Shown: in pieces, positions 36,614 through 63,200 of the stretch
Layout: each line of letters opens with the position of its first letter
How positions within the stretch are numbered: position 1 is the stretch's first letter
NCBI GenBank assembly: GCA_019751945.1
Contig: JAIEMT010000003.1
Span: forward strand, 34,993-98,992
DNA length: 64,000 bases
Origin: a bacterium
Lineage (GTDB): Bacteria > Bdellovibrionota > UBA1018
Reading direction: 5' to 3'
The notes under the pieces: generated by a model
What the model saw: only the letters and a program-made list of their open reading frames with translations
What the model was told of the DNA's origin: nothing
The model's database searches: none
Program-made: the position numbers and the translations under genes

Positions 36614-36688
36614 TGGGGTGTCGACAAGCGGTAAGTCACTGGATTTTGATTCCAGTATTCCTAGGTTCGAATCCTAGCACCCCAGCCA
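36614..36688 (+). tRNA. tRNA-Gln (anticodon TTG)
   Basis: Manual fold: acceptor TGGGGTG/CACCCCA with U1:A72; D-arm GACA-AGCGGTA-AGTC; anticodon stem CTGGA/TCCAG with loop TTTTGAT; T-arm CTAGG-TTCGAAT-CCTAG; discriminator G; CCA encoded. Confidence 0.85.
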
Positions 36689-37259
36689 ACTTTTCATCTC
36701 CTCTTATTTTTATTAGAGTTTTTTCAGGACTTACATTTTTGCGATCAATTGCGATCACCTCAGCCTCCCACTTTCGGTCGGAGACTTTTGTCAGCGCGCT
36801 TGCTTGGCGTTTTGCATACACATACGCTGACTGTGCCGATGAATTGCCAAGAAGCTGCTTTGCAACTTCGAGGTCAGAGGTTTCGTTATAGAGATTTCGA
36901 GTCCCTCCATGCCTCAAAACATGAGTGCCTGTATACGGCAGTCCCGCACTTCTGAAGGCTTGGTCATAGGCGTATTGAATCTGCCTATACTCAAAATGTC
37001 TTCCTCCTGATTCAAAGATCAGTCCTTTGGCTCCTGAAACATGCAAAGCCTCTAAGGCACGGTAGGTCTGTGGAAACATCGGATGTTCCTTAATCCCTTT
37101 ATTGGAATAGGAATTTTTGAAACCTGATTTTACCGCAGACAAGAGCCCCTTCTTTCTGGGCCATGAGACATATCGCACAACTTTGAGTCGAGACCTCTTA
37201 GGGTCGGACTGCAACAAAGTGTCCCGCTTTTTTGTTAACCGGACTTTTGACGCGATCAT
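36636..37259 (-). pseudogene. int: tyrosine recombinase (phage integrase) C-terminal catalytic fragment, separated from its N-terminal part by an IS insertion
   Basis: HVLRHGGTR (HxxR) box and downstream Tyr region; 3' end overlaps the tRNA-Gln 3' end; the first about 13 codons are IS-derived. Confidence 0.7.
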
Positions 37260-37297
37260 TTAAAGGATGATTTAATCTTTTAAACCGCGTCAAAGGA

Positions 37298-37639
37298 GTG
37301 AAGCGAATGGACCAACAAAATCAGAATACCCCACGTAAAAAGTTATCGCCAGACCAGAAGTTTAAAGTCATCAAAGAGCAAATGACGACGAAGACTTCGA
37401 TAAGCGATATTTGCAAAAAGTACGACATTGTTCCGTCGCAGTTTTACAAGTGGCAGGAGAAGTTTCTGAGTGGAGCTTTGGAGGGTTTCAAAAAATCTGA
37501 TGATGGCCCCACCAAGGCAGAACTTCGTAAAATTGATGAGCAGGAAAAAAGAATTCAGAAAATGCAGTCTGCAATCACCGAAATTATCCAGGAAAATATT
37601 GAGTTAAAAAAAAATCTTGGGGCTTCGGGACTTTTGTAG
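37298..37639 (+). CDS. IS3-family transposase OrfA (HTH)
   Basis: Matches IS3/IS911 OrfA pattern (KFKVIKEQMTTKTSISDICKKYDIVPSQFYKWQEKF, leucine-zipper tail); likely ATG at 37307 after GGAG. Confidence 0.8.
   Translation: MKRMDQQNQNTPRKKLSPDQKFKVIKEQMTTKTSISDICKKYDIVPSQFYKWQEKFLSGALEGFKKSDDGPTKAELRKIDEQEKRIQKMQSAITEIIQENIELKKNLGASGLL
37606..37614 (+). other. A9 slippery run, candidate programmed -1 frameshift site for OrfAB fusion
   Basis: A-run at the end of orfA where the orfB frame overlaps; typical of the IS3 family. Confidence 0.5.
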
Positions 37640-37668
37640 AAGTTCCCCCGGCAATCAGACCGCAAATC

Positions 37669-38604
37669 GTGGCTGATGTTGTTTTGCAACAGGATAGGTG
37701 TGAGCTGCAGCTTGAAGATTTGCTGCTTTGGTATGGGGTTAAAAAATCCACGTTTTATGACTGGCAAAAAGAGCCCACGATGGATGCAGAAAAGCCCCCG
37801 TTTGTAAGCGCCGCCTCGGTTCGTCCCGATGAGATTGCAGCAGTGCTGGCATATCGGGATCTTTACCCAGACATCGGGTACCGCAAGTTCACCTGGCAGA
37901 TGGTGGATGCGAACGTAGCGTTTTTATCGGAAAGCAAGGTCTACGATATTTTATCTGCCCACAATCGGCTTCAGGGATGGAACAAAGTCGACAACGGCGA
38001 AACTGGAAAAGAATATCGTCACAAACCCAGGTACGTTCACTATCACTGGCACACGGATATTGCGTACATCAAAGTGGGTGGAATCTTTTATTTTTTGATT
38101 ATGATGTTGGATGGCTACTCCCGGTATCTGCTGGATTGGGAGCTGATGACGGACATGCTTGGCGGGTCAGTTGAAAATTTTGTTCAACGTGTGAAAGAAA
38201 AATATCCACATGCACGGCCACGGCTGATCAACGACAATGGATCTCAGTTTATCAGTCACGATTTTAAACGACTTTTGCAAAAACTGGAAATCCAACAAAT
38301 ATTTACGCGCAGAAACCACCCGCAAACCAACGGGAAGATCGAACGAATGAATGGCACCGTCAAACAAGAAGCGCTTCGTCCCGGTCAACCTTGCGACTTT
38401 AGCGAGGCGTGGGAAATCTTGAACAAGTACAGTTACGAATACAATCACCAACGGCTGCATGCTGGGATCAATTTTTTGCGACCAGCGGATATGTTTTTTG
38501 GGCGTGGTGGGCAGGTGCTCAACGAACGTCGGGAAAAAATCGAAAATGCCCGCGCCGATCGAAAATCGCTCAACCGCGAGGAACGAATGAAAAATCTCCA
38601 CTAA
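37669..38604 (+). CDS. IS3-family transposase OrfB (DDE integrase core)
   Basis: HTDIAY...LIMMLDGYSR...NDNGSQFIS...HPQTNGKIER rve-domain motifs with D, D, E. Confidence 0.8.
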   Translation: MADVVLQQDRCELQLEDLLLWYGVKKSTFYDWQKEPTMDAEKPPFVSAASVRPDEIAAVLAYRDLYPDIGYRKFTWQMVDANVAFLSESKVYDILSAHNRLQGWNKVDNGETGKEYRHKPRYVHYHWHTDIAYIKVGGIFYFLIMMLDGYSRYLLDWELMTDMLGGSVENFVQRVKEKYPHARPRLINDNGSQFISHDFKRLLQKLEIQQIFTRRNHPQTNGKIERMNGTVKQEALRPGQPCDFSEAWEILNKYSYEYNHQRLHAGINFLRPADMFFGRGGQVLNERREKIENARADRKSLNREERMKNLH

Positions 38605-38636
38605 ATTTTTGCGTCAAAAGTCCGGATAGAAAAAAG

Positions 38637-39455
38637 CTAGACAAAAGATACGTCCTCCCAAAAAAGCCCTGCTACCTCAGAAATTCTCAAAGCCTGAAAA
38701 TATTGAACAGTTGCCATTGCCGAAAAGATCTCTCCATTTGGCTGCTCTCGAAGCTTTTCACAAAATCCCGAGAACTCTTCGACGGTAAGATCTCTAGATT
38801 TAGGTTTCGATTCACGGTTCAGCTTAACGGCCTTCTGGTGTCTCTCCTTGATCGGGTACCTGTATCTGGAGTCGTCATAGTACTCGCCATAGTATTTGAG
38901 AATCGTCCCTAATAACGAAAGCTCGTGATCAAATGACTTTCTGCGAACAGATTTCATAAAGGATCCTCTTGGGTCCTTCAAGGAATCAATCCATCGATCT
39001 ATTGCTGCTGAATCAGTTTTGAGAACTGGCAAATCCATCAACTGCTGAAAGTAAAGATTCACAATCTTTTCGTAGGCTACTCTTGTACTTTCCGCGAGCG
39101 TCGGAAATATTCTCGTTTTCCATTCTTCAATCAGCGTACCGAGAACAGGTCCTAAATCAGTTAAAACCCCGTCTGCCTTTATTTGAGTTTCCTGCGAAGC
39201 CTGCCACTTTCTGGCTTCCTCTAAAGTTGAAAAATACTCACTGATACGAATTGGTTTGCCATTAGCATCAGGTTCATACTTTTTAGCTAAATAATACTTT
39301 CCAGAAATTGGAAGAAGGTATTCTTTCCTGTCATTGTTCCAGACATATAAACGAGAGATCCTCGGCGCTCCGATGACTGCTCTATAAATACGATTCTTTC
39401 CTTCGTATTGTTTTGGATTTAGTTTCTTCACGGTTTGCTCCTTTTTTTGAGCCAC
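38637..39455 (-). pseudogene. int: tyrosine recombinase (phage integrase) N-terminal fragment: SAM-like domain plus box I
   Basis: Ends ...ALRISEVAGLFWEDV (box I Arg region) immediately before the IS end; continues in 36636-37259. Confidence 0.7.
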
Positions 39456-41533: not shown

Positions 41534-41630
41534 GTGAAGGACAAGGTCTGTGAATTAATTTTATTTTCAACAGCCCTATAGGAGCCAATATACTTAAGAC
41601 TCGTTTTAAAGCCGCTTATTTTTCTGGGTT

Positions 41631-42587: not shown

Positions 42588-42591
42588 TCCG

Positions 42592-45276: not shown

Positions 45277-45286
45277 AGAATCCCCT

Positions 45287-46090
45287 CTAAAAATTAAAAC
45301 GCACCTCGAATGGAACCGAGATTGGCAAAATTCGTTCGGAGGCTGACTGGGTACCCCTGGAACCTGCACCGGAAAAAAACTTTTGTTCCCATGTCGCGTT
45401 TGCAGATACACCGACCTGAAGGACTTCAGTAATACTGTATGTAAGAGCTACTTCTGGTTCGATAAAATATCCGAAATTATAAAACCCCGTATTTTGGTTC
45501 TTCTCGTAGTGAGAAATTGGGAAGCCAAATGAAATGCGAAACTCAAAACGAAAGTCACTCTTAAGTGAATTTATGTACTCTGTGAGAAAAAGAAGCCTCG
45601 TACTGCTCAGAGAGCTCATGACCTCACTCGGTGACGTTGGGGGGGTTGACTGCTGAAGAAGCTCTGCGCCTAAACCGAGCGATAATTTATCCACCACGGA
45701 AGAGCCACTGTCGGACTGAAAAAGATACCCGCTTAACAAAAAGCGTACTTTGGTGACCTCCTGGTTTACGCTGGACGGAGAAAGGCCACTGACTTTTAAC
45801 GTTACAGCTGTTTTCAGAAAAGTGGCTCGAATATAAGTCCCTGATTCACTCAGACGTCGTCGCAGCTCAGCTCCATAGACAGCGCCCGAACCATTAGGTA
45901 CCGACAAGCTCAGGCCAGAGCTATTCAAAGAATAGTTTAGTAAGCTCATACCCCCGAAAACTCGCGCGATCCACTTAGAGTTTTCGCCTGACAGATTTAG
46001 GCTATCCATATTCACTTTTTGTGGATTCTCTGCCCATGCAACCGTTCCGAAAGCTAAAATTGCGACAAGGCTAGCGGCAATCGCTTTCAT
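45287..46090 (-). CDS. outer-membrane beta-barrel protein
   Basis: Signal peptide MKAIAASLVAILAFGTVAWA; alternating-hydrophobic strands; C-terminal ...VPFEVRFNF with terminal Phe. Confidence 0.5.
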   Translation of the reverse strand: MKAIAASLVAILAFGTVAWAENPQKVNMDSLNLSGENSKWIARVFGGMSLLNYSLNSSGLSLSVPNGSGAVYGAELRRRLSESGTYIRATFLKTAVTLKVSGLSPSSVNQEVTKVRFLLSGYLFQSDSGSSVVDKLSLGLGAELLQQSTPPTSPSEVMSSLSSTRLLFLTEYINSLKSDFRFEFRISFGFPISHYEKNQNTGFYNFGYFIEPEVALTYSITEVLQVGVSANATWEQKFFSGAGSRGTQSASERILPISVPFEVRFNF

Positions 46091-46710
46091 CGGGGAAGCT
46101 CCTGCTCTCTAAATCCTTCGAATAGATAATTCGGATTCTTGGTGGCAGAAGGGCTAGTCTGCAATGAAGGTGGTGGTCCGACTGCAACCGTATTGCTCAA
46201 AGCAGGTCCAAAAGGTGCAAAGGCAACGGTATTTTTCGCTAATCTTTCAGATCCAGGAAGCAATATTTGCCGCGATCTCTCACGGGGTGAGGAATCGCCA
46301 ACTGTAGCAATGTCTCTTTCAGGCTGTGGGGGAACTATTGCCTCGAACTGAGAAGTAGCAGTGTCTAAGAGCCGACGAATTCCGTTTTTGACTTCTTCAA
46401 TTGTAGAAACTTTTAAAACGTACCGAAGCCTCTTTTTTGACAAACCCATTTCCTGGAGCTCTGGAATTCGAAGCTTTGTACCTAACGACACCACATCAGG
46501 ACTAGTAAGTCTATTTTTGTTTGCATCATAAATCTCACGCCAAAGTTGATGCGTTCCAAAAATACGATACGAAAAAGTTGCCAGTGTTTCGCCCGAAAGG
46601 ATGGTCTCCTCACGTACGGTGTCGGCGGAGTATCCAAGTTCTAAAAAAAAGAAAAAAGCAAACATTACCCAAATACAAATACGCATCCATTTACCGATCA
46701 TTAGGGGCAC
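46087..46710 (-). CDS. LysM domain-containing secreted protein
   Basis: TVREETILSGETLATFSYRIFGTHQLWREIYDANKNRLTSPDVVSLGTKLRIPEL is a canonical LysM; N-terminal TM/signal; Pro-rich C-terminus. Confidence 0.65.
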   Translation of the reverse strand: MPLMIGKWMRICIWVMFAFFFFLELGYSADTVREETILSGETLATFSYRIFGTHQLWREIYDANKNRLTSPDVVSLGTKLRIPELQEMGLSKKRLRYVLKVSTIEEVKNGIRRLLDTATSQFEAIVPPQPERDIATVGDSSPRERSRQILLPGSERLAKNTVAFAPFGPALSNTVAVGPPPSLQTSPSATKNPNYLFEGFREQELPR

Positions 46711-48169
46711 CTCCTAATGATCCAGCAAGCTTGCGTTTTAGTGAGTTCAGTTTTCTCGATGTCGATAACTCTAGGTGCGTTGGAACCTTGGCTCGTTCTA
46801 AAATGCTGATAGCCTCGTTAACTTTTCCAGTTTTTTCCATTAATAGTGCCAGGTTGACGCTCGCCTTAGGTCCAAACTCGGCATGATTCACTATTTTTCG
46901 GTATCTCGCTTCTGCTTCTTCATTTGCACCGGCAGATTCTAGAGTTAGAGCCAAATTAAAAGAGATAACAGGGTTCTCAGGATATCTTTTCTCAGCACCA
47001 AGGAGAATTTCAGCCGATTCTTTATATTTTTTCTGTTGATAAAATGTAATCGCTTTAAGGACAGCCACCTCGGGGTCAGTCTCTTCACTGGTTCTTATTT
47101 TCTTAATTTTATCGTAGGCCTGTTCGGGCAGATTGAAAGACAAGTAAAGTTTTGCCAATGCAATTGAGGCCCAGGACTGGTCCGGAGCCCTCTCATTATA
47201 AACAGCAACTAAGGAACCCGCTGCCTCCAGCTTTTTTTGGCTGATATAAAGATCAAATAGCAATCGGGTCGCCTGGTCAGAGGCAGGTTCTATTTTCAAC
47301 ACCTCTCGCAATGAATCTTCGGCTTTGTCGGGTTGCTTCAACTGAAGGTAAATCTCTGCTAAGCGCAAGCGCGGACTAGTTATCAAAGGTTCCAGTTCAA
47401 CAATTTTCGTTCCAACAGTTTGCGCTTCGCCTAAGCGTCCCAATGCCACCAATGCTTCCATCTTCCCATTCCAACCAGCCAAATTGGAGGGGTGGCTCGT
47501 CACGATACGTTCGAAAATGCGAAGACTTTCTTTTGCCTGATGGGTTTTAAGGTAAATATTTCCCAGACTTTCAAGTGCGGCTAAATTGTTGGGATCAGAT
47601 AAAAGCACTCGTAAGTAATCACTAATGGCGAATGTGGTCTTGCCCAACGCCTCGGCATTCCTAGCCGCTAAAAGGATTAAGTCTAAACTCTTACCTTTCT
47701 GTTTGCGTGAAGCCAAGAGTTCTTCAAGTTCAATATGTCTTGATAAACTGAAGAGGAGCTCGGCCCGTAGGATAAGAGCCTCTGGGTAGTCCCCCCGCAA
47801 CTTTTCAGCACGGCTTACTTCGACAAGAGCATCTTCCGATTTTCCGAAAGCCTTTAGACACTTGGCTTTAAGAAACCGTGCCTCTGCCCTAAACGGATTC
47901 TGATCTTCCAATAACTCATTGACCATAGCCAGAGCTTGATCTGGGTTGCCTACCGCTAATAGTACGCGAACCTGGCCTGTAATCGCTTCTTCCCGATACT
48001 CGCTTCTCTGAGCGAGCCGACGGTAAATTGAAAGAGCTGTGCGGAAATCATTGGAGCGTTCGGCGCTCTTAGCCAAAGAAATGTAATCAACGACGTCGAT
48101 ACCCTGCGCCCTTGGCTCTCCAATAAAAATTAAGCTAAATAAGCAAAGGACCCTAATGCAGTTCCCCAT
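46691..48169 (-). CDS. tetratricopeptide-repeat (TPR) protein, secreted
   Basis: Signal peptide then more than 10 consecutive TPR-like 34-aa helical repeats (A/L/Y-rich, W-LG-Y pattern). Confidence 0.7.
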   Translation of the reverse strand: MGNCIRVLCLFSLIFIGEPRAQGIDVVDYISLAKSAERSNDFRTALSIYRRLAQRSEYREEAITGQVRVLLAVGNPDQALAMVNELLEDQNPFRAEARFLKAKCLKAFGKSEDALVEVSRAEKLRGDYPEALILRAELLFSLSRHIELEELLASRKQKGKSLDLILLAARNAEALGKTTFAISDYLRVLLSDPNNLAALESLGNIYLKTHQAKESLRIFERIVTSHPSNLAGWNGKMEALVALGRLGEAQTVGTKIVELEPLITSPRLRLAEIYLQLKQPDKAEDSLREVLKIEPASDQATRLLFDLYISQKKLEAAGSLVAVYNERAPDQSWASIALAKLYLSFNLPEQAYDKIKKIRTSEETDPEVAVLKAITFYQQKKYKESAEILLGAEKRYPENPVISFNLALTLESAGANEEAEARYRKIVNHAEFGPKASVNLALLMEKTGKVNEAISILERAKVPTHLELSTSRKLNSLKRKLAGSLGGAPNDR

Positions 48170-48265
48170 GCATTAGTTATCGGGATCTTTTGTAAAGTAT
48201 TAAAAAAAAAAAGAAGGCAATCTTTTGACTGTGATGGAGCCGGCCCCAGGGCCGTGAAATGAGTT

Positions 48266-49303
48266 CTAATTTGTAGAAACCATCATACTCGTTACGCAAC
48301 GAGTATAAATTTGGGACGGGATATACGGACTAGTTCCAACGCGAGTTAAGGCGCCCGAGGCATAAGTAAACTTTTCAATGGTATTCGAGGTACTCAACGC
48401 ATTCGCGACATAGACATTGCCGGATGACGAATCAAGAGCCATAGCGGAGGGACCATTGATGATGGTCGAGTCCGAAAATGCAACTGCGGTATTAGAGATC
48501 GCGTTAGTCGTCGGATTGATGTCGTAAGAGTAAACATAATTTGATCCTGCAGTCGTGCTTCCATAGGCAACCAGTATTTTTCCGCTCGTATGCATCATGA
48601 TCCCAGTGGGCAGAGCCGTAGTACTAGGAGCCGTTTGCGAGGAGAGACAATCAGCAGACACGCTGTATCCGGTGGCTGCAATGACACCAAATTTGTTGTT
48701 CGGAGTTGCTGCCGCGTGGGCGTAGAGAATCTTTCCATTTGAGAGCGTGGTCATGCTGGAGATTAATGTGGTCGAGGTGGCACAGGAACCTGCCGGTGCG
48801 CTAACAAAAGGATTGGCCCCAGAGGTGATGCGAGATTTGTTAGAAGAAAATTTCTCAAGAGCCGTACCTTTGCTAACCAATAAACCTCCATCCGGCGACA
48901 TAAATATGCCTCGAAGCTGTGCGCTCATGGCCGTACTATTCACCAAATAGGTCGTTACCGTGTTGTAATAGGTCTTATCTACAAGATCAATTCTGCGACC
49001 ACTTGCGTTTTCAACCAAAACCAAAATTTGAGATGAGCTATAGTTGACCATGCCCACTGGCGAGTCGGATGGAGAAAATGAGTTGTAATCTACCAGTAGA
49101 GTATCATAGGCCCCCGTGGCCAAATCAAACTTAGTAATCGTGTTAGAGGCAGTGCTCACGGCGACGCCTCCACCGTAACAGGTCCCGCTTGCGACGTAGA
49201 GGAATGGGCCACTGGTTCCGGAAGGGGTGAGTACGTCCAAATTACCGCAGCTAAAGGCGACAGAACTAAGAGTCAAAACCAAAAAAAATCTTGACCTGGG
49301 CAT
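48266..49303 (-). CDS. lipoprotein, Ser/Thr-rich, probable beta-propeller-like repeats
   Basis: Lipobox AFSCG after MPRSRFFLVLTLSSV; repeated hydrophobic-strand/S-T-G segments; first gene of the five-gene minus-strand operon; the ORF-track start at 49321 is probably too far upstream. Confidence 0.45.
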   Translation of the reverse strand: MPRSRFFLVLTLSSVAFSCGNLDVLTPSGTSGPFLYVASGTCYGGGVAVSTASNTITKFDLATGAYDTLLVDYNSFSPSDSPVGMVNYSSSQILVLVENASGRRIDLVDKTYYNTVTTYLVNSTAMSAQLRGIFMSPDGGLLVSKGTALEKFSSNKSRITSGANPFVSAPAGSCATSTTLISSMTTLSNGKILYAHAAATPNNKFGVIAATGYSVSADCLSSQTAPSTTALPTGIMMHTSGKILVAYGSTTAGSNYVYSYDINPTTNAISNTAVAFSDSTIINGPSAMALDSSSGNVYVANALSTSNTIEKFTYASGALTRVGTSPYIPSQIYTRCVTSMMVSTN

Positions 49304-49492
49304 TTTACTTCCTCCGCGCATTTCGATACCACCAATATTATATCGTAATTATTTAGTTAATAGTTAAGGGCGGAATACGACATAGGGCGTTATATCTCTC
49401 ATAACAGCTTGTTAAATATTCTAAATGTAATAAATTGTTAACCTTTTGTTTTTTGTCAACTCACAAGTTCGTTCTGCCGAACGGTAATAGTA

Positions 49493-50098
49493 ATGAGGTG
49501 TCTTCAAACTCTCCCGTTATTGGTGTCCGCTGTTCTCGTGACGCTGTGTCCCGTTATGGGTTTTGCATTTACCAAAGAGCGGGCTGCGGCCATCGTGATG
49601 GGCGGAGCAACTTTTTACGGCGGAGGAACAACTGGTAGTTTAGCGGGAACGACAGGTTTTTCGTTTAGCCTGCAGGCGCAGCCCAAAAAAGGACTTCTCC
49701 GCCCCACTTTAGGAATATTTGGCGAAGCCGCTTCTGGCGTAGCTCCAATCTCTGGCACTCAGACTTCCTACAGCCTCTATGGAGGGGGATTCGCAGTTGG
49801 CGTGCAAATTTCTCCCTTCGCAGAAGGAAACATTACTCCTTACATTTCTGCAGACGGAATTTTGGGATGGAACTTACTCAAACTCGGAAGCAGTTCGACG
49901 ACGACCAATAACACGAATTCCCTGATGTATGGCTACGTCATTGGAGCAGGCGCAGATATTCGGTTAGCGCGAACCAAAGGAAATGCGATTCGATTGCAAA
50001 CTGGTTACCTTTACAAAGTTGGCAGATTAGCCGGGATTAATAGTTTTGCGATCCAGGGATTTGTCGTTTCCATCGGGTACTGCTTCTCGCCTCAATGA
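49493..50098 (+). CDS. small outer-membrane beta-barrel protein (OmpW/OmpA-N-like)
   Basis: Signal peptide; Gly/Thr-rich amphipathic strands; C-terminal ...SIGYCFSPQ; divergent from the island operon across an AT-rich promoter region. Confidence 0.5.
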   Translation: MRCLQTLPLLVSAVLVTLCPVMGFAFTKERAAAIVMGGATFYGGGTTGSLAGTTGFSFSLQAQPKKGLLRPTLGIFGEAASGVAPISGTQTSYSLYGGGFAVGVQISPFAEGNITPYISADGILGWNLLKLGSSSTTTNNTNSLMYGYVIGAGADIRLARTKGNAIRLQTGYLYKVGRLAGINSFAIQGFVVSIGYCFSPQ

Positions 50099-50505
50099 AA
50101 AAGCTGCTCCAACTCCTTGAAGGGCCCGGCGTACTAAAGATGAAGCGCGAGAACCGGAAGGCGAATCCTAATCCACGTACACGAGTTCAGATTTCAAAAA
50201 AGGCATTTCGCCCACCATTCTCAAATCCCGCCAGGGTATAAAGTCAGCGATGTGCAACCAACATTGAAGTGAAAAGTAGATCAAATCCTGCTGACACTGG
50301 AGTTGGAACCCTCTATCCATTTTGGATTAAGGTCAGAAAAGTGAGCCGATTTTGCAAAGAAAAAAGCAGCTCGAATGACCCTCTTTTGTTGCCCAACGGA
50401 GTAGCAATGCCAAGTCAAGATCGGGAAGCAGGAGTTCCCCTTTAAGACTTTTAGAATCCTTGTAAATTAAATCATTCTTATAGTTAGCGAGGGGGTCCGT
50501 ATTTT

Positions 50506-50805
50506 TCACGCGGCTCTTATTTTGACGTGCTTGGCGAGAATCTCATTGATGAGCGATTGATAGCCCGTGCGCTTCTCTTTGGCCTCACGGCGAATACCCT
50601 TAAGTGTTTCCTGGTCAATTCTCACGGCGATAAGTTTTCGCGGCGCGCTCCCAAGTAGGGGGCGACCCAAGCGCTTCATTGCATCAAGCTGCTTCCCGGA
50701 TAGTTCCGGAATGTCCGAAAAATCGATCTTACGATCGAGGATAGACTTTGCGCTCTTTTTTGCTGGCACACCGCGAGCTGATGATGCGGAATTTTTCTTT
50801 GCCAT
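50506..50805 (-). CDS. brnA: BrnA antitoxin (RHH/CopG-like) of type II BrnT/BrnA toxin-antitoxin system
   Basis: IDFSDIPELS...GRP...KLIAVRIDQETLKGIRREAKEKRTGYQSLINEIL matches the BrnA consensus. Confidence 0.65.
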   Translation of the reverse strand: MAKKNSASSARGVPAKKSAKSILDRKIDFSDIPELSGKQLDAMKRLGRPLLGSAPRKLIAVRIDQETLKGIRREAKEKRTGYQSLINEILAKHVKIRAA

Positions 50806-50977
50806 CTTTGCTTCTCCTCACTGTAAAAATAAAAGTCAGAATTCGACCTCGCTCTGACTTCGCGATTGCAACATACCGGTCTTCTGATTTTGAGTGAGAG
50901 CAGCTCATCGTCTCTTCAAAGCTCACGCCATGCTTTTCAAGGTTCCTGGCTGCTTTACGACTTTCCCGCTCAAACAC
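50729..50977 (-). CDS. brnT: BrnT toxin (DUF497 ribonuclease)
   Basis: ARNLEKHGVSFEE...HSKSEDRYVAIA...RILTFIFTVRR...FRIISSRCASKKERKVY matches the BrnT consensus; 82 aa. Confidence 0.65.
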   Translation of the reverse strand: MFERESRKAARNLEKHGVSFEETMSCSHSKSEDRYVAIAKSERGRILTFIFTVRRSKDGKEKFRIISSRCASKKERKVYPRS

Positions 50978-51114
50978 CTATTTAAGTATATACAAAAGTA
51001 GAGCATTCGCAAGAAGAAGTAGGTCATTGCCTAAAACAGGGCAGCCGAATAGGCCTTGCATGACGCAAATGCTTGTCCTACTGGGCCGATGTAAAGGGAA
51101 TTTGTCTTGTGTCG

Positions 51115-51834
51115 TCAGCCACGAATGAGAAAGTTTAGCCCCGCAAGAACTAGGGTCGCTTCCACGAGAACGAGGAAAACACGCTCTGGCAGCTTCTTTA
51201 CGATTTGCTTCCCAAGCCAGGATCCCAGAATCATGACCGGTCCCACAGCGAGCCCGACATAGACCATCTTCTCGGTCAGAAGTGAGGTCTGATGGTAGGC
51301 GGCGATCTTAAAGACGTGCATGACAACGGTGCAGAGGGCTTCGGTCCCAATGAACGCACCTTTTACAAGACCGTAGGCAAGAAAGAACGGCACAATAAAG
51401 GGACCAACACTTCCGACTAGGGCTGAGAGAAAACTAAAGCCTAGTCCAACGCCGATGAATCCCCGTACAGGCATCCTCTTAACCCGCTTGGTTCCAACCC
51501 AGCGCCAAAGGACAGTCAGCAGAAGAAATGGCCCGAGGAACCGAATGAGGACAGGAGCGGGAGCTTTTGCGAAGAAAAATCCGCCGATCAGAGCACTAGG
51601 AATTGCGCTGACTGAAAAATAGCGGACCACTTTCCAATCCAGCTCGTGGCGGTGAAAGAAAACTCGGCTTCCGTTTCCAATGAGTTGAGCGACCGCGAGG
51701 ATCGGAATGGCGTCCCTAACGCCGAAAATCGCAACGAGAACCGGAAGAAGAACAGCAGCGCCGCCGAACCCAGTGATGCCAGCAAGCGTGGAACCACCGA
51801 GCGCAGCTCCGGCAAGGAGAATCCACTGCATCAT
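51115..51834 (-). CDS. TauE/SafE family sulfite/anion exporter
   Basis: 239 aa, 8 TM, two internal repeats with Gly-rich helices typical of TauE/SafE. Confidence 0.75.
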   Translation of the reverse strand: MMQWILLAGAALGGSTLAGITGFGGAAVLLPVLVAIFGVRDAIPILAVAQLIGNGSRVFFHRHELDWKVVRYFSVSAIPSALIGGFFFAKAPAPVLIRFLGPFLLLTVLWRWVGTKRVKRMPVRGFIGVGLGFSFLSALVGSVGPFIVPFFLAYGLVKGAFIGTEALCTVVMHVFKIAAYHQTSLLTEKMVYVGLAVGPVMILGSWLGKQIVKKLPERVFLVLVEATLVLAGLNFLIRG

Positions 51835-52203
51835 GCGTTGCCCACTCGTATCGTTACAGTCTGAAGGTCTTCCAAGGATTTTGAGATCAAATCTTTATCC
51901 GACGACTTTTTATCAAGCGGAGTTCCTTACTTCTGAAAGGGGATGTTGCTCCTTCAAGGGCTTCGTCACAAATTTTCTTCACTGCTATTTCCTGACATTT
52001 CGCGAGTTGTCCTATTTTGCTGAAAATTTAAAAAAACCCCACGAAATAGGCGTTGTTTAACGCAGGTGCTTGTCCTACAATAGGACAAAACGGGCAGTAA
52101 GTAATGGATTTTATTCAGTCCCAATCAAACCAGCCATTTAAAAAAGATTAAACTCCCTCAAAATAAAAAATCTCCGACAAACCAATCGACTATTCGAAGC
52201 ACG

Positions 52204-52223
52204 CTGGGGTGCTAGGATTCGAA
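52204..52223 (-). repeat. exact 20-bp inverted copy of the tRNA-Gln 3' end (TTCGAATCCTAGCACCCCAG)
   Basis: 52204-52223 is the reverse complement of 36666-36685; candidate att remnant or island boundary; pairs 13/14 with 52360-52373. Confidence 0.7.
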
Positions 52224-52429
52224 GCGAAGGACGCGACCCGCGGACGACTCCAAAGGAGTCGGACGAGGGGCGGCGCAGTGAGGGAGCGTGAAGCGACCGA
52301 ACGTAGTGGCCGAATCTCGCCCGAGGCACGCGCGTGCCGAGCCTCTAAGCAAGAAGACAAATCCTAGCCCCCCTTGTCCTCCATTGCCTTTGTTTGCTTT
52401 TCTAAGCAAAAAATTGAATCTGATATACT

Positions 52430-53032
52430 TTGACGGTGAGATTCGAACTCATCCTAACCATCGGAATTCTACTCAGCAGCGGTCTTCCCACTCACGCCGC
52501 CGAAGACGACTGCGACCACCACTACGCCGATCTTCAAGCCTATCTCAAGCAGCATACAGAATTGAACAGCGAGGTTCTCGACATTCAAGATGGAAAAATA
52601 TCCGTGCAAACGGTGCTACTAGAATCACGGCAGGGGAAATTTCTGCAACTCCTAGGGGCTGCCATAAAAAACGGCCGAGTAACCGAGATTCAAGCTGGCA
52701 ATGTCGTCGCTCCTAAGATCCTCTCCTTCTTTGTGAACGCAAAACGATACGCCCCTCAAGAGGGCTCATGCAAAGTCAAAGGACTCCTAAACCCCACGTT
52801 TTTGAAAACGATGGCCCAAGCAGAAAAGAAGCTCAAAAGCCCATTGAAACCCGACGGCACTCGCAACCCGAACTACTGGAGTGATGCCGACAAAAAGAGA
52901 TTCGACGCAGCCTGGAAAAATCTCAAGATTGAGGAAGCTTGCCGGAAGTTCTATCCAGCGGAGCCTTGCGACGACCTAGTCTTTGAGTTTGACGTCCGTG
53001 ATCCCACTCAAATTCAATGGCGACGTCCCTAA
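52430..53032 (+). CDS. secreted hypothetical protein
   Basis: Signal peptide MTVRFELILTIGILLSSGLPTHAA; several Cys; no known domain. Confidence 0.4.
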   Translation: MTVRFELILTIGILLSSGLPTHAAEDDCDHHYADLQAYLKQHTELNSEVLDIQDGKISVQTVLLESRQGKFLQLLGAAIKNGRVTEIQAGNVVAPKILSFFVNAKRYAPQEGSCKVKGLLNPTFLKTMAQAEKKLKSPLKPDGTRNPNYWSDADKKRFDAAWKNLKIEEACRKFYPAEPCDDLVFEFDVRDPTQIQWRRP

Positions 53033-53052
53033 GTTTCAGCTACACTCCCTTT

Positions 53053-53415
53053 ATGGCAAAAAACTATTACGTTGATGGATTCCTGGCTCCTGTTCCCCGC
53101 AAAAAACTGAAAGAGTACCAGCGCAATGCTGCTGTCTTAGGCAAGATCTGGCGCAAGTACGGTGCTTTGAAATATGTGGAATGCGTGGGCGACGACACCC
53201 CCAAAGGAAAAATCACTTCTTTTCCCCGAAGCGTGAAACTCAAATCGGGTGAAGTCGTGATCTACTCTTGGATTCAATACAAATCCCGCGCGCATCGCGA
53301 TGCTGTGATGAAGAAAATCCACAAAGACGCGAAGGTCGCCGAGATTTTTGAGAACATGCCCTTCGACGGAATGCGCATGGTTTGGGGCGGATTTAAGCCG
53401 TTCGTCAGCCTCTAA
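53053..53415 (+). CDS. DUF1428 family protein
   Basis: MAKNYYVDGFLAPVPRKKLKEYQRNAAVLGKIWRKYGALKYVECVGDD matches the DUF1428 N-terminus. Confidence 0.6.
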   Translation: MAKNYYVDGFLAPVPRKKLKEYQRNAAVLGKIWRKYGALKYVECVGDDTPKGKITSFPRSVKLKSGEVVIYSWIQYKSRAHRDAVMKKIHKDAKVAEIFENMPFDGMRMVWGGFKPFVSL

Positions 53416-53722: not shown

Positions 53723-54064
53723 ATGAACATTCGTGCTACGAGTGGCCGCATGAATTCACATTTCTTAACAGCTGCAGTTGCCCTTTCATTAGTGATGCTC
53801 ACTTCATCTGAAATTCACGCGAAAGAAAAAAAGAAGACTCCGACACCTGCGGGCTTCAAAATTGTGAGCGTGGAATCGGGGAGTATTTTTGAAAAGCTGA
53901 ACTTCAAGAAGGGTGACGTCATCACGACTGTGAATGGTCAATCGATGGCCACTGTGCCGAATCCTTCAGCCATGCTCGAGTACCTCAACAAACCTGGAAA
54001 TATGGAAATTCAATTCGTAAGAAACGGGCAGCCTCAGACGCTGACGTTTCACTTCAAAGAATAA
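53723..54064 (+). CDS. small periplasmic PDZ-domain protein
   Basis: Signal peptide then a single PDZ-like fold (GFKIVSVESGSIFEKLNFKKGDVITTVNGQ). Confidence 0.5.
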   Translation: MNIRATSGRMNSHFLTAAVALSLVMLTSSEIHAKEKKKTPTPAGFKIVSVESGSIFEKLNFKKGDVITTVNGQSMATVPNPSAMLEYLNKPGNMEIQFVRNGQPQTLTFHFKE

Positions 54065-54065
54065 T

Positions 54066-54887
54066 TTATTGCGAATCTGCAGGAAGCACGGTGATTTCAA
54101 TTCGCCGATTTGTCGCTCGACCCGTGGTGGTCGAGTTATCGCCAATCGGATGGTAGTAAGAAGCGCCGGCGAGTTGAATTCGGCGCGGATCCCACTGTTC
54201 ATTTCTCTGTAACCAGAACTGCACCACAGACTGCGCTCTTGCAGTGGAAAGCTTCCAACCGACCGACGGATCGGATTCCGATTCTTCAGTGGGTTCCGTA
54301 TGACCTTCAATACGAATCTTATGCTTCTTATACTTGGCCAATAGGTTTCCTAGCTTAGAGAGAACCGGTGACATGTCCGGAATGATTTCCGATTTTCCAT
54401 GAGCAAAGAACTCTGGCGTGACGATTCTGAGAACCACACCCTTTTTCTCATAACGAGATTCAAAATGAGTGGGGCTTTCAGGAGTCATTCCAAGCTGAAC
54501 TGAAATACTGTTTTCAATCTCATCCACGATAGCGAGCAAGTCGACTTCCGGAGAAGTAGGCGGAACGAATCGGCCAACGGGTAAATCCACCGTGCGTCCG
54601 GATACCGTTTGAGTTTGAACGAAGGGCTCGAGCTGACTTCCACCCTTGGGCTGATCCATGGGAATCTTCAAGGGGCTAATCTCGGCTTGCGAAGTTCCAT
54701 TAAAATGGCCGGCGATTTCGGCTTTGGTTTCTTCGTCGACACCCATGAGCCACATCACCAAGAAAAAAGCCATCATCGCGGTAACGAAGTCGGCGTAAGC
54801 AACTTTCCAAGCGCCGCCGTGGTGTCCCCCATGGCCGCCGCCCTTTTTCTTTCTAACGATAATGACTGCACCTTTAGGAGCCGCCAT
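54066..54887 (-). CDS. motB: flagellar motor stator protein MotB (OmpA-like C-terminus)
   Basis: N-terminal TM with conserved Asp (AYADFVTAMMAFF), C-terminal OmpA-like peptidoglycan-binding domain (RIEGHTE...NRRIEITV). Confidence 0.75.
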   Translation of the reverse strand: MAAPKGAVIIVRKKKGGGHGGHHGGAWKVAYADFVTAMMAFFLVMWLMGVDEETKAEIAGHFNGTSQAEISPLKIPMDQPKGGSQLEPFVQTQTVSGRTVDLPVGRFVPPTSPEVDLLAIVDEIENSISVQLGMTPESPTHFESRYEKKGVVLRIVTPEFFAHGKSEIIPDMSPVLSKLGNLLAKYKKHKIRIEGHTEPTEESESDPSVGWKLSTARAQSVVQFWLQRNEQWDPRRIQLAGASYYHPIGDNSTTTGRATNRRIEITVLPADSQ

Positions 54888-54890
54888 GAA

Positions 54891-55697
54891 TTATGCCGCC
54901 TTCTTTCCAGCTGAAGAAGTTTGAGAATCGATTTCCTTGAAGCTGGGTCTCAAGTGCATAGGAATCGATCGGCGAGCAAATTCGACGCAGACCTTGGGAG
55001 GAGCTTCCCGAGCCAGTGCGATCAGAGCCACTTTGATGACATTATACATCTTCGTGTGCCCTTCGAGATTCGCTTCCATCTTTGCGGCTAACGGCTGCAT
55101 GAATCCGTACGATGCCAAAATCCCCAAAAACGTTCCGACCAACGCTGCAGCGACGCTATGACCGATGACTTCTTTACCTTGGGTCAGCTTACCCATGGTG
55201 ATCACGACCCCCAAGACGGCGGCGACGATCCCCAAACCAGGCATCGCATCCCCGATTCGTGTGACCGTGGCAGGAGCTTGAGCATCATCGTGATGAACCG
55301 TCGCGATGTCGGTATCCAAAAGTTCTTCAAGATCGAAGGGGGTCATCGGCGAGCTGACTTGCATTTTCAAAGTGTCGCAGATGAAGTCGACCATGTGAGG
55401 GTCGTGGAGCACAAACGGATAGCGTTTGAAAATTTCGTTGTCTTTCGGATTTTCTGCGATGGGTTCTAGAGCAAGTGGATTTGCTTTACCGATTTTGAAT
55501 ATCTCATACAAGCAAAGCAGAACTTGTGTGTATTCATCGCGACTGGCAGAATGTCCCGCGATAGTTCCGATTGCTTGCGAAATAATTTTTTTGATTAAAG
55601 TCACAGGCGCAGAAATCAAGAGAGAGCCCAACGCTGCCCCACCAATGATCAACAACTCGACCGGTTGGAAAAGGACGTGGATCTTCCCTCCCTCCAT
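54891..55697 (-). CDS. motA: flagellar motor stator protein MotA
   Basis: 268 aa, 4 TM, MotA/TolQ/ExbB proton-channel C-terminal helices (TFLGILASYGF). Confidence 0.8.
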   Translation of the reverse strand: MEGGKIHVLFQPVELLIIGGAALGSLLISAPVTLIKKIISQAIGTIAGHSASRDEYTQVLLCLYEIFKIGKANPLALEPIAENPKDNEIFKRYPFVLHDPHMVDFICDTLKMQVSSPMTPFDLEELLDTDIATVHHDDAQAPATVTRIGDAMPGLGIVAAVLGVVITMGKLTQGKEVIGHSVAAALVGTFLGILASYGFMQPLAAKMEANLEGHTKMYNVIKVALIALAREAPPKVCVEFARRSIPMHLRPSFKEIDSQTSSAGKKAA

Positions 55698-56021
55698 GAG
55701 GTAGCCCCCGAATACCGAAACAATAACTACGACTACGCCAATGATGACTAGCAGGTGTGTAGCTCCAGTATTCTTATCGCCGGATCCCTATGAATTCCTG
55801 AAAGATTCTTGGGGGTTTGGGCAGATAATTCTGCTGTCAAAAACCCGGCGAGCCTGCCAAAAAGAAGCTCGGCGTCACTGACTCAGCTCAACAATAAAAG
55901 TCGCCAGGCAGCGAACCCCCTCCATTTATTACACAAACTTTACATCTCACCCGCGGAATCCCCCTTCTCTCTTTTGACTCAATGTGTTACGAGCCTTCAA
56001 GCTTTCTGAAAGAGGTGTTCC

Positions 56022-56384
56022 ATGAAGCTGATTTCCGTCATTTTACTGGCTGTTGCCACCACCGTCCGAGCTGCTGAAACGGATTCCCAAGATCCACCGA
56101 CATGCTACTTGCGCAGTGCAGGCAATTCCCTCCGCGCTCCGAAAACTCACTGTAAAGTCACTATCGCTTGTCCCATCGCAGGAACAGACATTCTGGGAAC
56201 GATGTCTTTTGATTGCGAAGCCGACAAACAGGGCTGCCTCTACATCGACGAACCTCGGTCCAGCGATCGCACCGAGCTCACCCAAGATGCGTCCAGCAAA
56301 GTTAGAAAATCTATCGACGGCGGTAAAGCCTATGAAGCCGCCTCCACCTTGGCTTGCGAGAAACTGAAAGCCCTTCAACAGTGA
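56022..56384 (+). CDS. small secreted Cys-rich protein (7 Cys)
   Basis: Signal peptide MKLISVILLAVATTVRA; 120 aa; no known family. Confidence 0.45.
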   Translation: MKLISVILLAVATTVRAAETDSQDPPTCYLRSAGNSLRAPKTHCKVTIACPIAGTDILGTMSFDCEADKQGCLYIDEPRSSDRTELTQDASSKVRKSIDGGKAYEAASTLACEKLKALQQ

Positions 56385-56812
56385 CACTCTATCCCGTTGC
56401 GCTTGCCGCACTTTTCTTCTCTCTCCCCTCTTTCGCCCAAGACCAAGCCGCTCTCTGTGAAACCCACGACGGCATGGCCATTGGAAAAATCACGGAACGC
56501 TTTATTGAAAATGGAGTTCCTAGCGCGAATTTCGCCGGCCACTTCTTTCAAGACGTGGCCTCTGGATCCGGCTTTGATTTGAAGCCCACTCTCGACGGCG
56601 AAGTGGTTTACGGAGTGAAACAAGACAACTGCTATCCCGCCAAACAGGGCGATACGCGAAGCAACTCGAAGGCCGTGTGTAACGGCGTCGCGGGGTCCAT
56701 CAAAGAAATCTACGTTTTGGCAAATGCCTATTTAGGAGAGTTGAGTGAGTTCACTTCTCAAGACCAGAAAACCCACCGACTCGTTCGCGTGAAAGACTGT
56801 CGCTTCAACTAG
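56381..56812 (+). CDS. small secreted Cys-containing protein, GTG start overlapping upstream stop
   Basis: GTG at 56381 overlaps the upstream TGA (GTGA); N-terminus VTLYPVALAALFFSLPSFA is signal-like. Confidence 0.4.
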   Translation: MTLYPVALAALFFSLPSFAQDQAALCETHDGMAIGKITERFIENGVPSANFAGHFFQDVASGSGFDLKPTLDGEVVYGVKQDNCYPAKQGDTRSNSKAVCNGVAGSIKEIYVLANAYLGELSEFTSQDQKTHRLVRVKDCRFN

Positions 56813-57329
56813 CCTTCTTAAACACGCACCGATAATTCTTCGGAAAAGATTTGCTGTAAGGGGCAATCATCAAGTCATCGGGCCGCTCTTCGGATTCATA
56901 TCCATACTTCTCATAGATCAGTGTCGAAACATCTTGAAGTTTGTAAACACCCATAATGATCGAAAGCCCGCCCGTGCCCGGTTTCTTGTCGCCTTCTTTT
57001 TTCCAAATACTGCCGACCACAATCTGCCTTCCTTGATTGTAGGATTCTGGCAATCGAATGGTCCTATAGGTCACACCTTCTCCATCTTTTTCAACGACTT
57101 CGTTGGCGGTGTTCAAATCAGAGATCACTTTTCCGCGAGTGACCTGAAAAATACCCGCTAAGGTTTTAGAGATCGTCAACTCACTGGGCCAGCTGGGGTG
57201 TTTTTCGCAATCTTCGGTCGCAACCCACTTTCCTAGCATTTCTGGAGAGACCTGAACGGGAGCAGGTGCTTTATTTGCCGCAAATGCCGCCGGGACAAAA
57301 ACGAACATCAACAGAAATGGAAACCTCAT
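56805..57329 (-). CDS. secreted hypothetical protein
   Basis: Internal start MRFPFLLMFVFVPAAFA is a signal peptide; ATGA-coupled to the upstream desaturase. Confidence 0.4.
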   Translation of the reverse strand: MRFPFLLMFVFVPAAFAANKAPAPVQVSPEMLGKWVATEDCEKHPSWPSELTISKTLAGIFQVTRGKVISDLNTANEVVEKDGEGVTYRTIRLPESYNQGRQIVVGSIWKKEGDKKPGTGGLSIIMGVYKLQDVSTLIYEKYGYESEERPDDLMIAPYSKSFPKNYRCVFKKAS

Positions 57330-58078
57330 CCGCCCTCCGGCACTCTTCGCACTGAAGCCAAGCGCAAAATTTCTAAAGTACGAATATAAAACCAACCCAA
57401 ATCAAACTCGTACCATTTATGAGAAAGCTTTGCTGAAGCGGGTTGCGCGTGATGGTTGTTGTGCAACTCTTCCCCGCCGATGAACCACGCCCAGGGCACA
57501 ATGTTGCGGCTCGTGTCTTTCAAAACATGATTGCGATAACCCCAGTGGTGGCCAATTCCATTGATCACGCCAGCCGCCCAAAACGGAATCCAAACCATCT
57601 GGACTACAAAAATCAAAGTCCCCGGAACGAGGCCGAACAAGAGGAGATCAATCACGGCCATTGTCACAGGCCCCTTGAAACTATGCGGAGTGTAGAGATG
57701 GTGTTCGATCCAATCGTCCGGAGTACCCTGGCCGTAGCGCTCTAAAGTTTCTGGCTTGGCCGCTTCCCGCGTATAGAGCAAAGCCCCCGTCCAAAGCACG
57801 CGATTGATTCCCAAAACATAGGGACTGTGCGGATCTTCAACGGTGTCGCACTTTGCGTGATGCTTGCGGTGAACCGCAGTCCACTCTTTCGTCACCATCC
57901 CGGTGGTGAGCCAACCCCAGAATCGAAAAAAATGACTGACGATGGGATGCAACTCCAGCGAGCGGTGCGCTTGATGGCGATGTAAAAAAATCGTGACCGT
58001 CGCAATGGTGATATGAGTTAGACCGAGTGCGACAAAGACATACCCCCAAAAGCTTAGTTGGATGAGTCCCTGAAACAT
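57326..58078 (-). CDS. membrane fatty-acid (acyl-CoA/acyl-lipid delta-9-like) desaturase
   Basis: Three His boxes HRHQAHRS, HRKHHA, HNNHHA with the spacing and TM layout of the stearoyl-CoA desaturase family. Confidence 0.75.
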   Translation of the reverse strand: MFQGLIQLSFWGYVFVALGLTHITIATVTIFLHRHQAHRSLELHPIVSHFFRFWGWLTTGMVTKEWTAVHRKHHAKCDTVEDPHSPYVLGINRVLWTGALLYTREAAKPETLERYGQGTPDDWIEHHLYTPHSFKGPVTMAVIDLLLFGLVPGTLIFVVQMVWIPFWAAGVINGIGHHWGYRNHVLKDTSRNIVPWAWFIGGEELHNNHHAQPASAKLSHKWYEFDLGWFYIRTLEILRLASVRRVPEGG

Positions 58079-58118: not shown

Positions 58119-58445
58119 CTATCCTTCTGCAGAATCCGCCTGCTTCTCAGCTTCTTCAGCGGAAACAGGAACGCCACGATTCAGAGAGGGGCGCTTGATC
58201 TCGGCGAGGTACGCGTCGAGAATCTTTTTTTCCATGGTGGTGCGGGTGGATTGATTGAGGGGGTGCGCGATATCCTTGAACGCTCCGTCTTTACGGCGCT
58301 TGCTTGGCATCGCAACAAAGAGGCCCGTGTTGCCACTAATGATCTTCAAATCTCGGATAACGAAACAGTTATCCAAGACGATCGTAATATAGGCTTTCAG
58401 CTTCTCTTCGTTCACAGGGAAGACTTTGACTTCAGTGATGTCCAT
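58119..58445 (-). CDS. spoVG: SpoVG family protein
   Basis: MDITEVKVFPVNEEKLKAYITIVLDNCFVIRDLKIISGNTGLFVAMPSKRRKDGAFKDIAHPLN matches SpoVG nearly throughout; GAGGAAG RBS. Confidence 0.78.
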   Translation of the reverse strand: MDITEVKVFPVNEEKLKAYITIVLDNCFVIRDLKIISGNTGLFVAMPSKRRKDGAFKDIAHPLNQSTRTTMEKKILDAYLAEIKRPSLNRGVPVSAEEAEKQADSAEG

Positions 58446-58712
58446 CCGGGCTACTTCCTCCCAATCAGCTCGTGTGGTAACACTCTGAATCACTTAAATC
58501 GGCACAGAAATCAAATATATTAGAGCCCACACCCAATTCCCCTACAGTGTAATGAATTCACTTCTACTTTACTATGGGGGAGTTGACGGAACTCGAGAAA
58601 TAACCCTAAGTGATTGATTTTTAGCTCGTTTGATAGGAAGCGCCAAAATCGTAAGTGGCTTAAATGACTTGGTTCTGCGCAAAAACCAACCAAAGTCCTT
58701 AATATAAACTTA

Positions 58713-61295: not shown

Positions 61296-61341
61296 ATCTA
61301 AAAGATGAGTTCAAAGTAGTCCGAGTCAAGGCCGGGACCGA

Positions 61342-62922: not shown

Positions 62923-63200
62923 TTTTTTCCCGCTTTCTTTTGAATCTCTACGAATCTCATTCGCGTTTCAAAAAGCAGCTGATCGAGCAGTTTGTCTTCT
63001 TCAGGAGTGCGATTACCCTTGGTCTTTTCCCAAATCAATTCGAGCAAATCGATGTTGTGACGGGCCAGTTCCAAATTTTGCTGAGGCTTCTCTCCTTCTC
63101 CGGCTGGTAAAATTCCCAGGCCCATGAAAGCAGCCGAAGAAACCGACAGCATGAAAGTGGTGAGATCAATCTTTGGTAACTGAGTAGAATCGGTTCCCAT
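62919..63200 (-). CDS. DUF1844 domain protein
   Basis: 93 aa; IDLTTFMLSVSSAAFMGLG...NLELARHNIDLLELIWEKTKGN matches the DUF1844 pattern; ATGA-coupled downstream of degP. Confidence 0.55.
   Translation of the reverse strand: MGTDSTQLPKIDLTTFMLSVSSAAFMGLGILPAGEGEKPQQNLELARHNIDLLELIWEKTKGNRTPEEDKLLDQLLFETRMRFVEIQKKAGKK

Follow-up and report, generated by a model that had tools for sequence, protein, structure and literature searches.

Some genomic islands and prophages use tyrosine integrases to integrate into the 3' ends of tRNA genes, at sublocations in the T-loop and at the 3' end, and leave attL and attR sites. What, then, should be made of a tRNA end that occurs back to front? The 64-kb window analysed here (by which we mean the whole stretch of 64,000 nt) raises this question with a 171-nt segment (52203-52373) in which two copies of the 3' end of tRNA-Gln face each other around a GC-rich spacer. 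An earlier reading, made from the letters alone (the sequence-only reading), had proposed either an att remnant or a structured ncRNA, and had offered three origins for the inverted copy: an inversion between two tRNA-Gln-derived sites, a degraded second tRNA gene, or an RNA element.

Two facing copies of a tRNA end

The window has a single tRNA gene, tRNA-Gln(UUG), according to both ARAGORN and Rfam. The 21 nt that precede its terminal CA (36666-36686) form a block that spans the T-loop, the 3' strands of the T-stem and of the acceptor stem, the discriminator base G73 and C74, the first C of CCA. The reverse complement of this block constitutes the left arm of the segment (blastn within the window, E ~1e-6), so that the inverted copy, previously given as 20/20, is real and one base longer. 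The 13/14 inverted partner of 52206-52219 (AATCCTAGCCCCCC), which leaves 140 nt between the 14-nt arms, is also borne out, and an equally good partner arm arose in only one of 2000 shuffles of the adjoining 220 nt. As had been noticed, the same 14 nt are a weaker direct copy of the tRNA end, identical at 13 positions to 36670-36683; alone, this match is not significant (E 4.4). The description of the surroundings stands as well: the palindrome GGCACGCGCGTGCC at 52325-52338 falls within the spacer, the spacer is much richer in GC than its flanks (67%, against 40% on the left and 34% on the right), and the segment lies in the 601-nt gap between two divergent genes (Table 1).

Table 1. Features of the segment, of the island at tRNA-Gln and of their surroundings (window coordinates unless another contig is named).
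Feature	Coordinates	Strand	Remarks
tRNA-Gln(UUG)	36614..36688	+	putative integration target (attL side); ARAGORN; Rfam tRNA 61.9 bits
tyrosine integrase, C-terminal fragment	36636..37259	-	HxLRH box, catalytic Tyr region; Pfam Phage_integrase 1.5e-6
IS3-family insertion sequence	37226..38634 (approximate ends)	+	orfA 37298-37639, orfB 37669-38604; Pfam rve/rve_3
tyrosine integrase, N-terminal fragment	38637..39455	-	ends ...ALRISEVAGLFWEDVSF, first catalytic Arg box
TauE	51115-51834	-	left border of the 601-nt gap
9-nt direct repeat ATTCGAAGC	52192-52200 and 52217-52225	+	flanks the tRNA-derived GCTGGGGTGCTAGG; read from the sequence
antisense arm	52203..52223	-	tRNA-Gln 3' end copied exactly over 21 nt, in the orientation opposite to the tRNA gene; blastn 21/21
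spacer (core)	52224..52359	.	136 nt, 67% GC, CpG observed/expected 1.41, several short hairpins
sense arm	52360..52373	+	AATCCTAGCcCCCC; same orientation as the tRNA-Gln gene, whose 3' end it copies at 13/14 positions; candidate for a decayed att copy on the distal side
198-aa gene	52436-53032	+	right border of the 601-nt gap; starts 63 nt downstream of the element
shared SpoVG-ClpB region	window 58119-63200; L147 11561-16552; L167 11493-14790

In a scan of metagenomes, the bare 21-mer TTCGAATCCTAGCACCCCAGC proved to be the tRNA-Gln 3' end of a very wide range of organisms: it occurs at at least 120 loci (122 occurrences), all of them within or at the end of intact tRNA-Gln genes among the matches listed. 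Hence, the sequence of the arm alone cannot identify a donor. The core has no match in plasmid and phage collections, and the element has no second copy in the 64-kb window (both by blastn). Separately, a TTGTCCT(A) motif occurs four times in the spacer between TauE and the 198-aa gene (52007-52016, 52071-52089, 52374-52381). One occurrence lies within the perfect palindrome TTGTCCTAcaaTAGGACAA, which has the look of an operator, and another is found immediately to the right of the right arm.

Could the segment be an RNA gene? ARAGORN, run on both strands of the window, returns the tRNA-Gln gene and no tmRNA, and at gathering thresholds Rfam likewise has tRNA-Gln as its sole match in the window. 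A permissive Rfam scan of 51800-52500, with E up to 10, gave two chance-level matches (E 0.3-2), the top scores being 18.7 bits for snoU61 and 14.5 bits for Guanidine-III, for gathering thresholds of 55 and 36. The similarity of the core to the body of tRNA-Gln is no better than that of shuffles, and the 5' half of the T-stem expected in a tmRNA-like T-arm is absent before TTCGAAT. A degraded second tRNA gene, with neither a scanner match nor a core resembling tRNA-Gln, is thus not upheld. The sequence-only reading had named such silence of the scanners as telling against its proposal; it does so for the RNA options only, and leaves the att option standing.

The alternative of a structured ncRNA would take the form of a minus-strand transcript whose 5' end would pair with a tRNA-Gln-like 3' end and so mimic the acceptor/T-arm minihelix, with a 136-nt domain inserted. 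The 14-bp closing helix, the internal hairpins and the position of a GC-rich segment in an AT-rich spacer are in its favor, and the minus strand folds better than shuffles (z = -2.3; plus strand, z = -1.1). Yet, this advantage is marginal and mostly owed to the arms, nothing in the tRNA, tmRNA and Rfam searches rose above chance even at E up to 10, no sigma-70-like promoter occurs in 51700-52600, and no terminator adjoins the element. Folded as DNA, the segment does no better than shuffles (z about -0.3). The 600-nt spacer is 100% identical among contigs of the same species, and covariation is therefore uninformative. We return below to this alternative, which we hold to be very unlikely.

The island at tRNA-Gln and its variation among strains

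The neighborhood of tRNA-Gln is that of an integrated island. The open reading frame of the C-terminal integrase fragment extends into the 3' end of tRNA-Gln, on the strand antisense to it, and an IS3-family element, whose terminal inverted repeats can be read from the sequence (...CCGGACTTTTGACGC), separates this fragment from the N-terminal one. Once joined, the pieces have 178 database homologues, of which the best is 59% identical over 99% of the length, and the full-length homologues range from 40 to 59% identity at 99% coverage. They are therefore one integrase gene split by the IS3, and this insertion has inactivated the integrase of the island. Since the gene is disrupted, excision would need a helper. 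The cargo that follows comprises an excisionase-like HTH_17 gene (called in L017), an IS256-type transposase and hypothetical genes and, further on, a TPR protein, a BrnA antitoxin and TauE, after which comes the element. The BrnA-type antitoxin gene (50506-50805), just left of TauE, is probably one half of a type II toxin-antitoxin pair.

We compared the window with same-species contigs from other samples, which are 98.8-100% identical to it. On the left side, three diverging contigs (L018, L019 and L022) have SNPs at ~0.7% up to position 36186. From 36187 the SNPs disappear, until about 40185-40189 in L018 and L019, which extend furthest, while L022 ends at 37249. On the right side, two contigs have 0-1 SNPs over 46172-52482; the first SNP is at 52483, and divergence reaches 15% across the 198-aa gene, just right of the SNP-poor block. 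The stretch from tRNA-Gln to just past the element thus behaves as one recently shared block. A second SNP-free stretch follows (54000-58000), before ordinary divergence resumes from SpoVG/ClpB. This suggests that an array of island DNA continues to SpoVG and that the element is internal to it rather than at its outer edge; islands may be arrayed over the whole interval of 36.6-58.1 kb, and the element would then mark a junction within the array. The SNP-poor block ends ~109 nt to the right of the direct arm, and not at the arm.

Two other observations concern the content of the interval. The 198-aa protein looks secreted and is an orphan, with only two alleles, 81% identical, among 5.8 billion proteins. 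Its gene lies in a SNP-dense patch (~15% across 52483-53100) in strains that are otherwise 0-0.7% apart, and this patch (52436 to about 53999) points to diversifying selection or to an imported allele. In the ENA contig k127_94231 (L002), position 48144 is joined directly to 41548, beside the IS256-type transposase, and the 6.6 kb in between (41549-48143), which carry five hypothetical or TPR genes, are missing.

A segment bounded by inverted repeats upstream of such a variable gene might be thought to be an inverton, in which a recombinase would use the 14-bp repeats to flip the 140-bp core and thereby switch the 198-aa secreted gene. The length of the repeats and the size of the segment they flank are typical of invertons. 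The gene is suitably placed, 63 nt downstream, it is an orphan, and its product differs by 19% between strains. The breaks of Logan contigs at 52372-52400, in at least five samples, could also be taken as signs of flipping. Nevertheless, all eight same-species contigs that cover the core have, as assembled, the orientation of the window, and the breaks fall elsewhere than at the inner edges of the repeats, the positions from which the two orientations would differ. The neighboring integrase is disrupted, the core has no promoter-like site, and the comparable modules of two relatives described below (L145 and L154) have no downstream gene to control. We thus consider an inverton highly improbable.

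The contig ends deserve a description of their own. Contigs from at least five Logan samples end at 52400 or start at 52372, and the last base of one Logan contig (L021) is 36686, precisely where the 21-mer ends, while another from the same sample (L003) crosses 52203 uninterrupted. These ends, at 52372-52400 and at 36686, imply branches in the assembly graph. Core flipping, homopolymer length variation and excision were considered as causes of the breaks at 52372-52400, and the coordinates fit none of them.

Integrase relatives and a possibly recurrent layout

The relatives of the integrase show what its sites usually look like. Homologous integrases lie 4-46 nt from tRNA-Gln (L147, L167) or tRNA-Pro (L144, L145), and at greater distance from tRNA-Ser (L154, L164) or tRNA-Arg (L161), and direct repeats of the tRNA end, 19-21 nt long, recur at the opposite edge of these islands. 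A block of ~21 nt is therefore the usual att block of the family, and the 21-mer of the window fits it in size and content. The repeat can be plain: in L147 the tRNA end is repeated directly, over 21 nt, at a distance of 11 kb, and L164 is a 5.8-kb tRNA-Ser island with another of 21 nt. In L158, an unintegrated element with an integrase 51% identical to that of the window, the attP carries TGGCTGGGGTGCTAGGA, the antisense of the window's tRNA-Gln end, which shows that elements of this family do carry the tRNA-Gln-end block.

Other searches returned less. When GTDB genomes were scanned with TauE, only three relatives came up (66% amino-acid identity), and neither synteny nor the element is seen in them. 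Viral contigs had no match to the orphan 21-mer, none to the hairpin pattern, no close and four distant integrases, and, for the tRNA-Ser att, one attP of an unrelated phage. The arm-type integrase-site motifs of the relatives (doublets of CTTCCACCGAAATC and TGGTCGCAA) are not enriched near the element.

Two of the relatives depart from the plain repeat in the same direction as the window. In L145, at tRNA-Pro and with an integrase 53% identical to the window's, the tRNA end occurs twice as direct repeats (7545-7565 and 7317-7335), and the outer one, a perfect 19-nt att copy, is followed by a 136-nt core at 64% GC and by an inverted arm matching at 14/17 positions (26/2000 shuffles). In L154, at tRNA-Ser and with an integrase 46% identical to the window's, the integrase stop is 33 nt away from a perfect 21-nt att copy, which is followed by a 141-nt core at 64.5% GC, an inverted arm split by a small hairpin, a terminator and the intact tRNA (direct att copies at 2017-2037 and 2223-2243). 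The inverted arm of L154 is weak as a single segment (185/2000 shuffles), and its outer 8-mer also pairs across the tRNA terminator. All three instances have the same order along the direction of the tRNA: antisense arm, core, sense arm. In the window as in L145, 136 nt separate the perfect att copy from its partner, and the three cores have similar CpG observed/expected ratios (1.41, 1.38 and 1.33). Local and in-register comparisons found no homology among the cores. The palindromic design at the att junction is unusual and possibly recurrent, with three instances known, one of them weak; the members L147, L164, L158 and the inner copy of L145 have AT-rich arms without the module, which is absent from roughly half of the visible distal junctions of the family. 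The three-instance layout thus remains a lead, not a result.

The integrase protein of L154 also occurs at a second genomic site, one that has no tRNA (L152, 11346-11667). After the integrase there, the tRNA-Ser end forms a perfect inverted repeat of 12 nt (AGTGGCGGAGAG / CTCTCCGCCACT) around a 298-nt spacer of 47% GC.

These comparisons bear on the nature of the segment. An alignment of the three instances does not reveal a structure in common (-11 kcal/mol; the covariation term is positive). Terminators lie so close to the L145 and L154 units, which begin 2-12 nt after one on either side, that a promoter would not fit. The element of L154 does fold well (z = -4.2), as an RNA element would, but the CCA end is itself paired, to the 5' arm, which is not the case in a tRNA acceptor. 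The segment is neither a tRNA pseudogene nor an RNA gene, and is probably not transcribed as a functional RNA. Because the three cores share no sequence or fold, and because the units of L145 and L154 leave no room for a promoter, we conclude that the palindromic layout is a property of the DNA, linked to the att site, rather than the mark of an RNA family. A small mobile palindromic repeat of the MITE or REPIN type, with tRNA-like ends by chance, would have the terminal inverted repeats, the ~170-nt length and the intergenic location in its favor. This explanation is scarcely plausible when the cores of the three instances are unrelated and the arms match the local tRNA each time. Moreover, the element is present in a single copy in the 64 kb, has no plasmid or phage match and no hairpin counterpart in viral contigs, and its arms have no flanking target-site duplication.

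The comparison with L147 and L167 raises the matter of rearrangement. These come from organisms ~71% identical in ClpB DNA, and share the order integrase, a few bases, convergent tRNA-Gln, then SpoVG-ClpB; HtrA and DUF1844 come next in L147, and likewise in the window. As both have this arrangement, tRNA-Gln beside SpoVG is a conserved target in the group. In the window, the integrase/tRNA-Gln pair is inverted relative to L147 and L167, lies 21.5 kb from SpoVG, and no tRNA trace is found beside SpoVG (58.1 kb). These differences in orientation and in the neighborhood of SpoVG mean that at least one rearrangement separates the window genome from L147 and L167.

Such a rearrangement might seem to explain the inverted arm: the perfect 21-mer would be the footprint of a former direct attR turned round by an inversion, site-specific or homologous, of which one end fell between it and the tRNA, and its 13/14 partner would be incidental. 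Besides the opposite orientation of the integrase-tRNA-Gln pair, which abuts SpoVG-ClpB in L147 and L167, the presence of IS3 and IS256 copies and the end of L021 exactly at 36686 would suit this account. However, an inversion containing both copies leaves their relative orientation unchanged, and one between the copies appears in none of the 13 same-species contigs that reach the right-hand copy or the DNA on either side of it; the crossing of 52203 by L003, from the sample of L021, is also against it. The account has to treat as accidental a partner arm that shuffling indicates is significant, and L145 and L154 have a similar order of antisense arm, core and sense arm without any inversion. 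We also tried to derive the window's gene order from that of L147 and L167 by one or two inversions, and rejected the attempt: no single inversion changes the orientation of the tRNA relative to the 21-mer. For this reason inversion was dropped as the main explanation. The inversion between two tRNA-Gln-derived sites that had been suggested is not needed for an order found in three instances, and we regard it as unlikely.

A proposed attachment-junction module and its known counterparts

We favor, with slightly better than even confidence, the explanation that the segment is a DNA-level recombination-site module at the distal junction of a tRNA-Gln island integrated via a tyrosine integrase. 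The att remnant, one of the two original proposals, is the one that gained support: the integrase abuts tRNA-Gln, the DNA from the tRNA to the element is shared by strains with differing flanks, and relatives leave 19-21-nt copies of tRNA ends. The island would have integrated into the tRNA-Gln 3' end through its tyrosine integrase. The direct arm would then be the partly decayed distal att junction, and the inverted arm with its GC/CpG-rich spacer would be an island-side arm beside it. This arm could be part of the island's own attP, or a tiny, integrase-less remnant of the cis-mobilizable element (CIME) kind against which the island piled up. Past the direct arm would lie different DNA, from the 198-aa orphan gene onward to SpoVG.

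Of the hallmarks of an att junction in a tRNA-integrated island, the window has the integrase next to the target tRNA and a segment that is distinct as a unit from its flanks, as indicated by the SNP pattern and by the position of tRNA-Gln directly beside SpoVG in relatives. The distal direct repeat, on the other hand, is only 13/14 (E 4.4 alone), and the exact 21-mer is the inverted copy. Several further points count against the att explanation. The direct arm diverges after its 13/14 match, with CCCC followed by TTGTCC in place of AGCCA, whereas a fresh attR is expected to have the full identity block. The perfect copy is the inverted one in the window and the direct one in L145 and L154. 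The SNP-poor block runs on past the direct arm, and the second SNP-free stretch would make the element an internal junction. The small number of instances and the family members with AT-rich arms are on the same side of the balance. Neither excision nor an empty-site junction was observed. No proximal direct att copy was found to the left of the element in the window (928/2000 shuffles match equally well); here the module may belong to the attP arm of the island itself. A candidate decayed proximal copy at ~52121-52137 was discarded as not significant.

What would an inverted arm do at such a junction? It may bind additional integrase at a set distance from the crossover site. The equal spacing of 136 nt, together with a spacer that varies freely, suggests to us an accessory integrase-binding site in phase with the crossover; a substrate made of a folded single strand is less likely. 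A more specific proposal, which we hold to be improbable as it stands, is that some islands of the clade use an attP with a second, inverted copy of the crossover sequence 136 bp away across a sequence-variable GC/CpG-rich spacer, the two being bridged in a loop or paired in a single-strand hairpin. In such a design, 136 bp (~13 helical turns) would let integrase molecules bridge both arms in a looped complex. Alternatively, the site would fold as a single-stranded DNA hairpin, like the attP of CTX-phi or the attC of integrons.

For annotation, the segment would mark, on our favored explanation, a junction within the 21 kb of arrayed island DNA that lie between tRNA-Gln and SpoVG. att remnants are normally plain direct repeats, and a combination of an inverted arm, a GC-rich spacer of 136-141 nt and an att copy, at three tRNA genes and in one integrase clade, would differ from them. 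If a wider survey found this to be true, it would point to an accessory element of tRNA-targeting integration sites that has so far not been described, or to a group of minimal hitchhikers that lack an integrase.

How does the segment compare with known systems? It shares with the attL and attR of tRNA islands an integrase that adjoins the tRNA, a block of ~21 nt from the T-loop to the acceptor end, and a copy of this block at the far edge of foreign-looking genes. The relatives L147, L164 and L145 show textbook direct repeats, whereas in the window the exact copy is inverted, the direct copy is 13/14, and a GC-rich spacer of 136 nt lies between these facing copies. Integron attC sites and the attP hairpin of CTX-phi are recombination sites that act folded or paired. 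Like the segment, they have imperfect inverted repeats of a recombination site around a variable center, with structure and length conserved and the sequence between the arms not. They differ in that the segment has no IntI or Xer system and does not fold as DNA beyond expectation (z = -0.34); its integrase belongs to a tRNA-targeting clade, and the arms in the window have no R''/R' boxes of attC (RYYYAAC ... GTTRRRY). Invertons resemble it in having a 14-bp inverted repeat that flanks ~140 bp upstream of a gene for a variable secreted protein. They are unlike it in that one orientation was seen, no promoter was detected, and the arms come from a tRNA and go with the integrase of an island, not with an invertase of their own.

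A further parallel is offered by CIMEs, which have direct attL and attR sites on both sides and no integrase or transfer genes inside, and which accrete in tandem with integrative elements (PMC5704250). L145 and L154 each have a gene-free unit of ~185-210 nt between direct att copies, in tandem with an integrase-bearing island, as in CIME accretion (PMC5704250). The strict definition applies to these two units and not to the window, which has no proximal direct att copy. The units of L145 and L154 are nevertheless far smaller than the CIMEs described, and differ from them in following a recurrent plan of a terminator, an inverted att arm and a GC-rich core of 136-141 nt.
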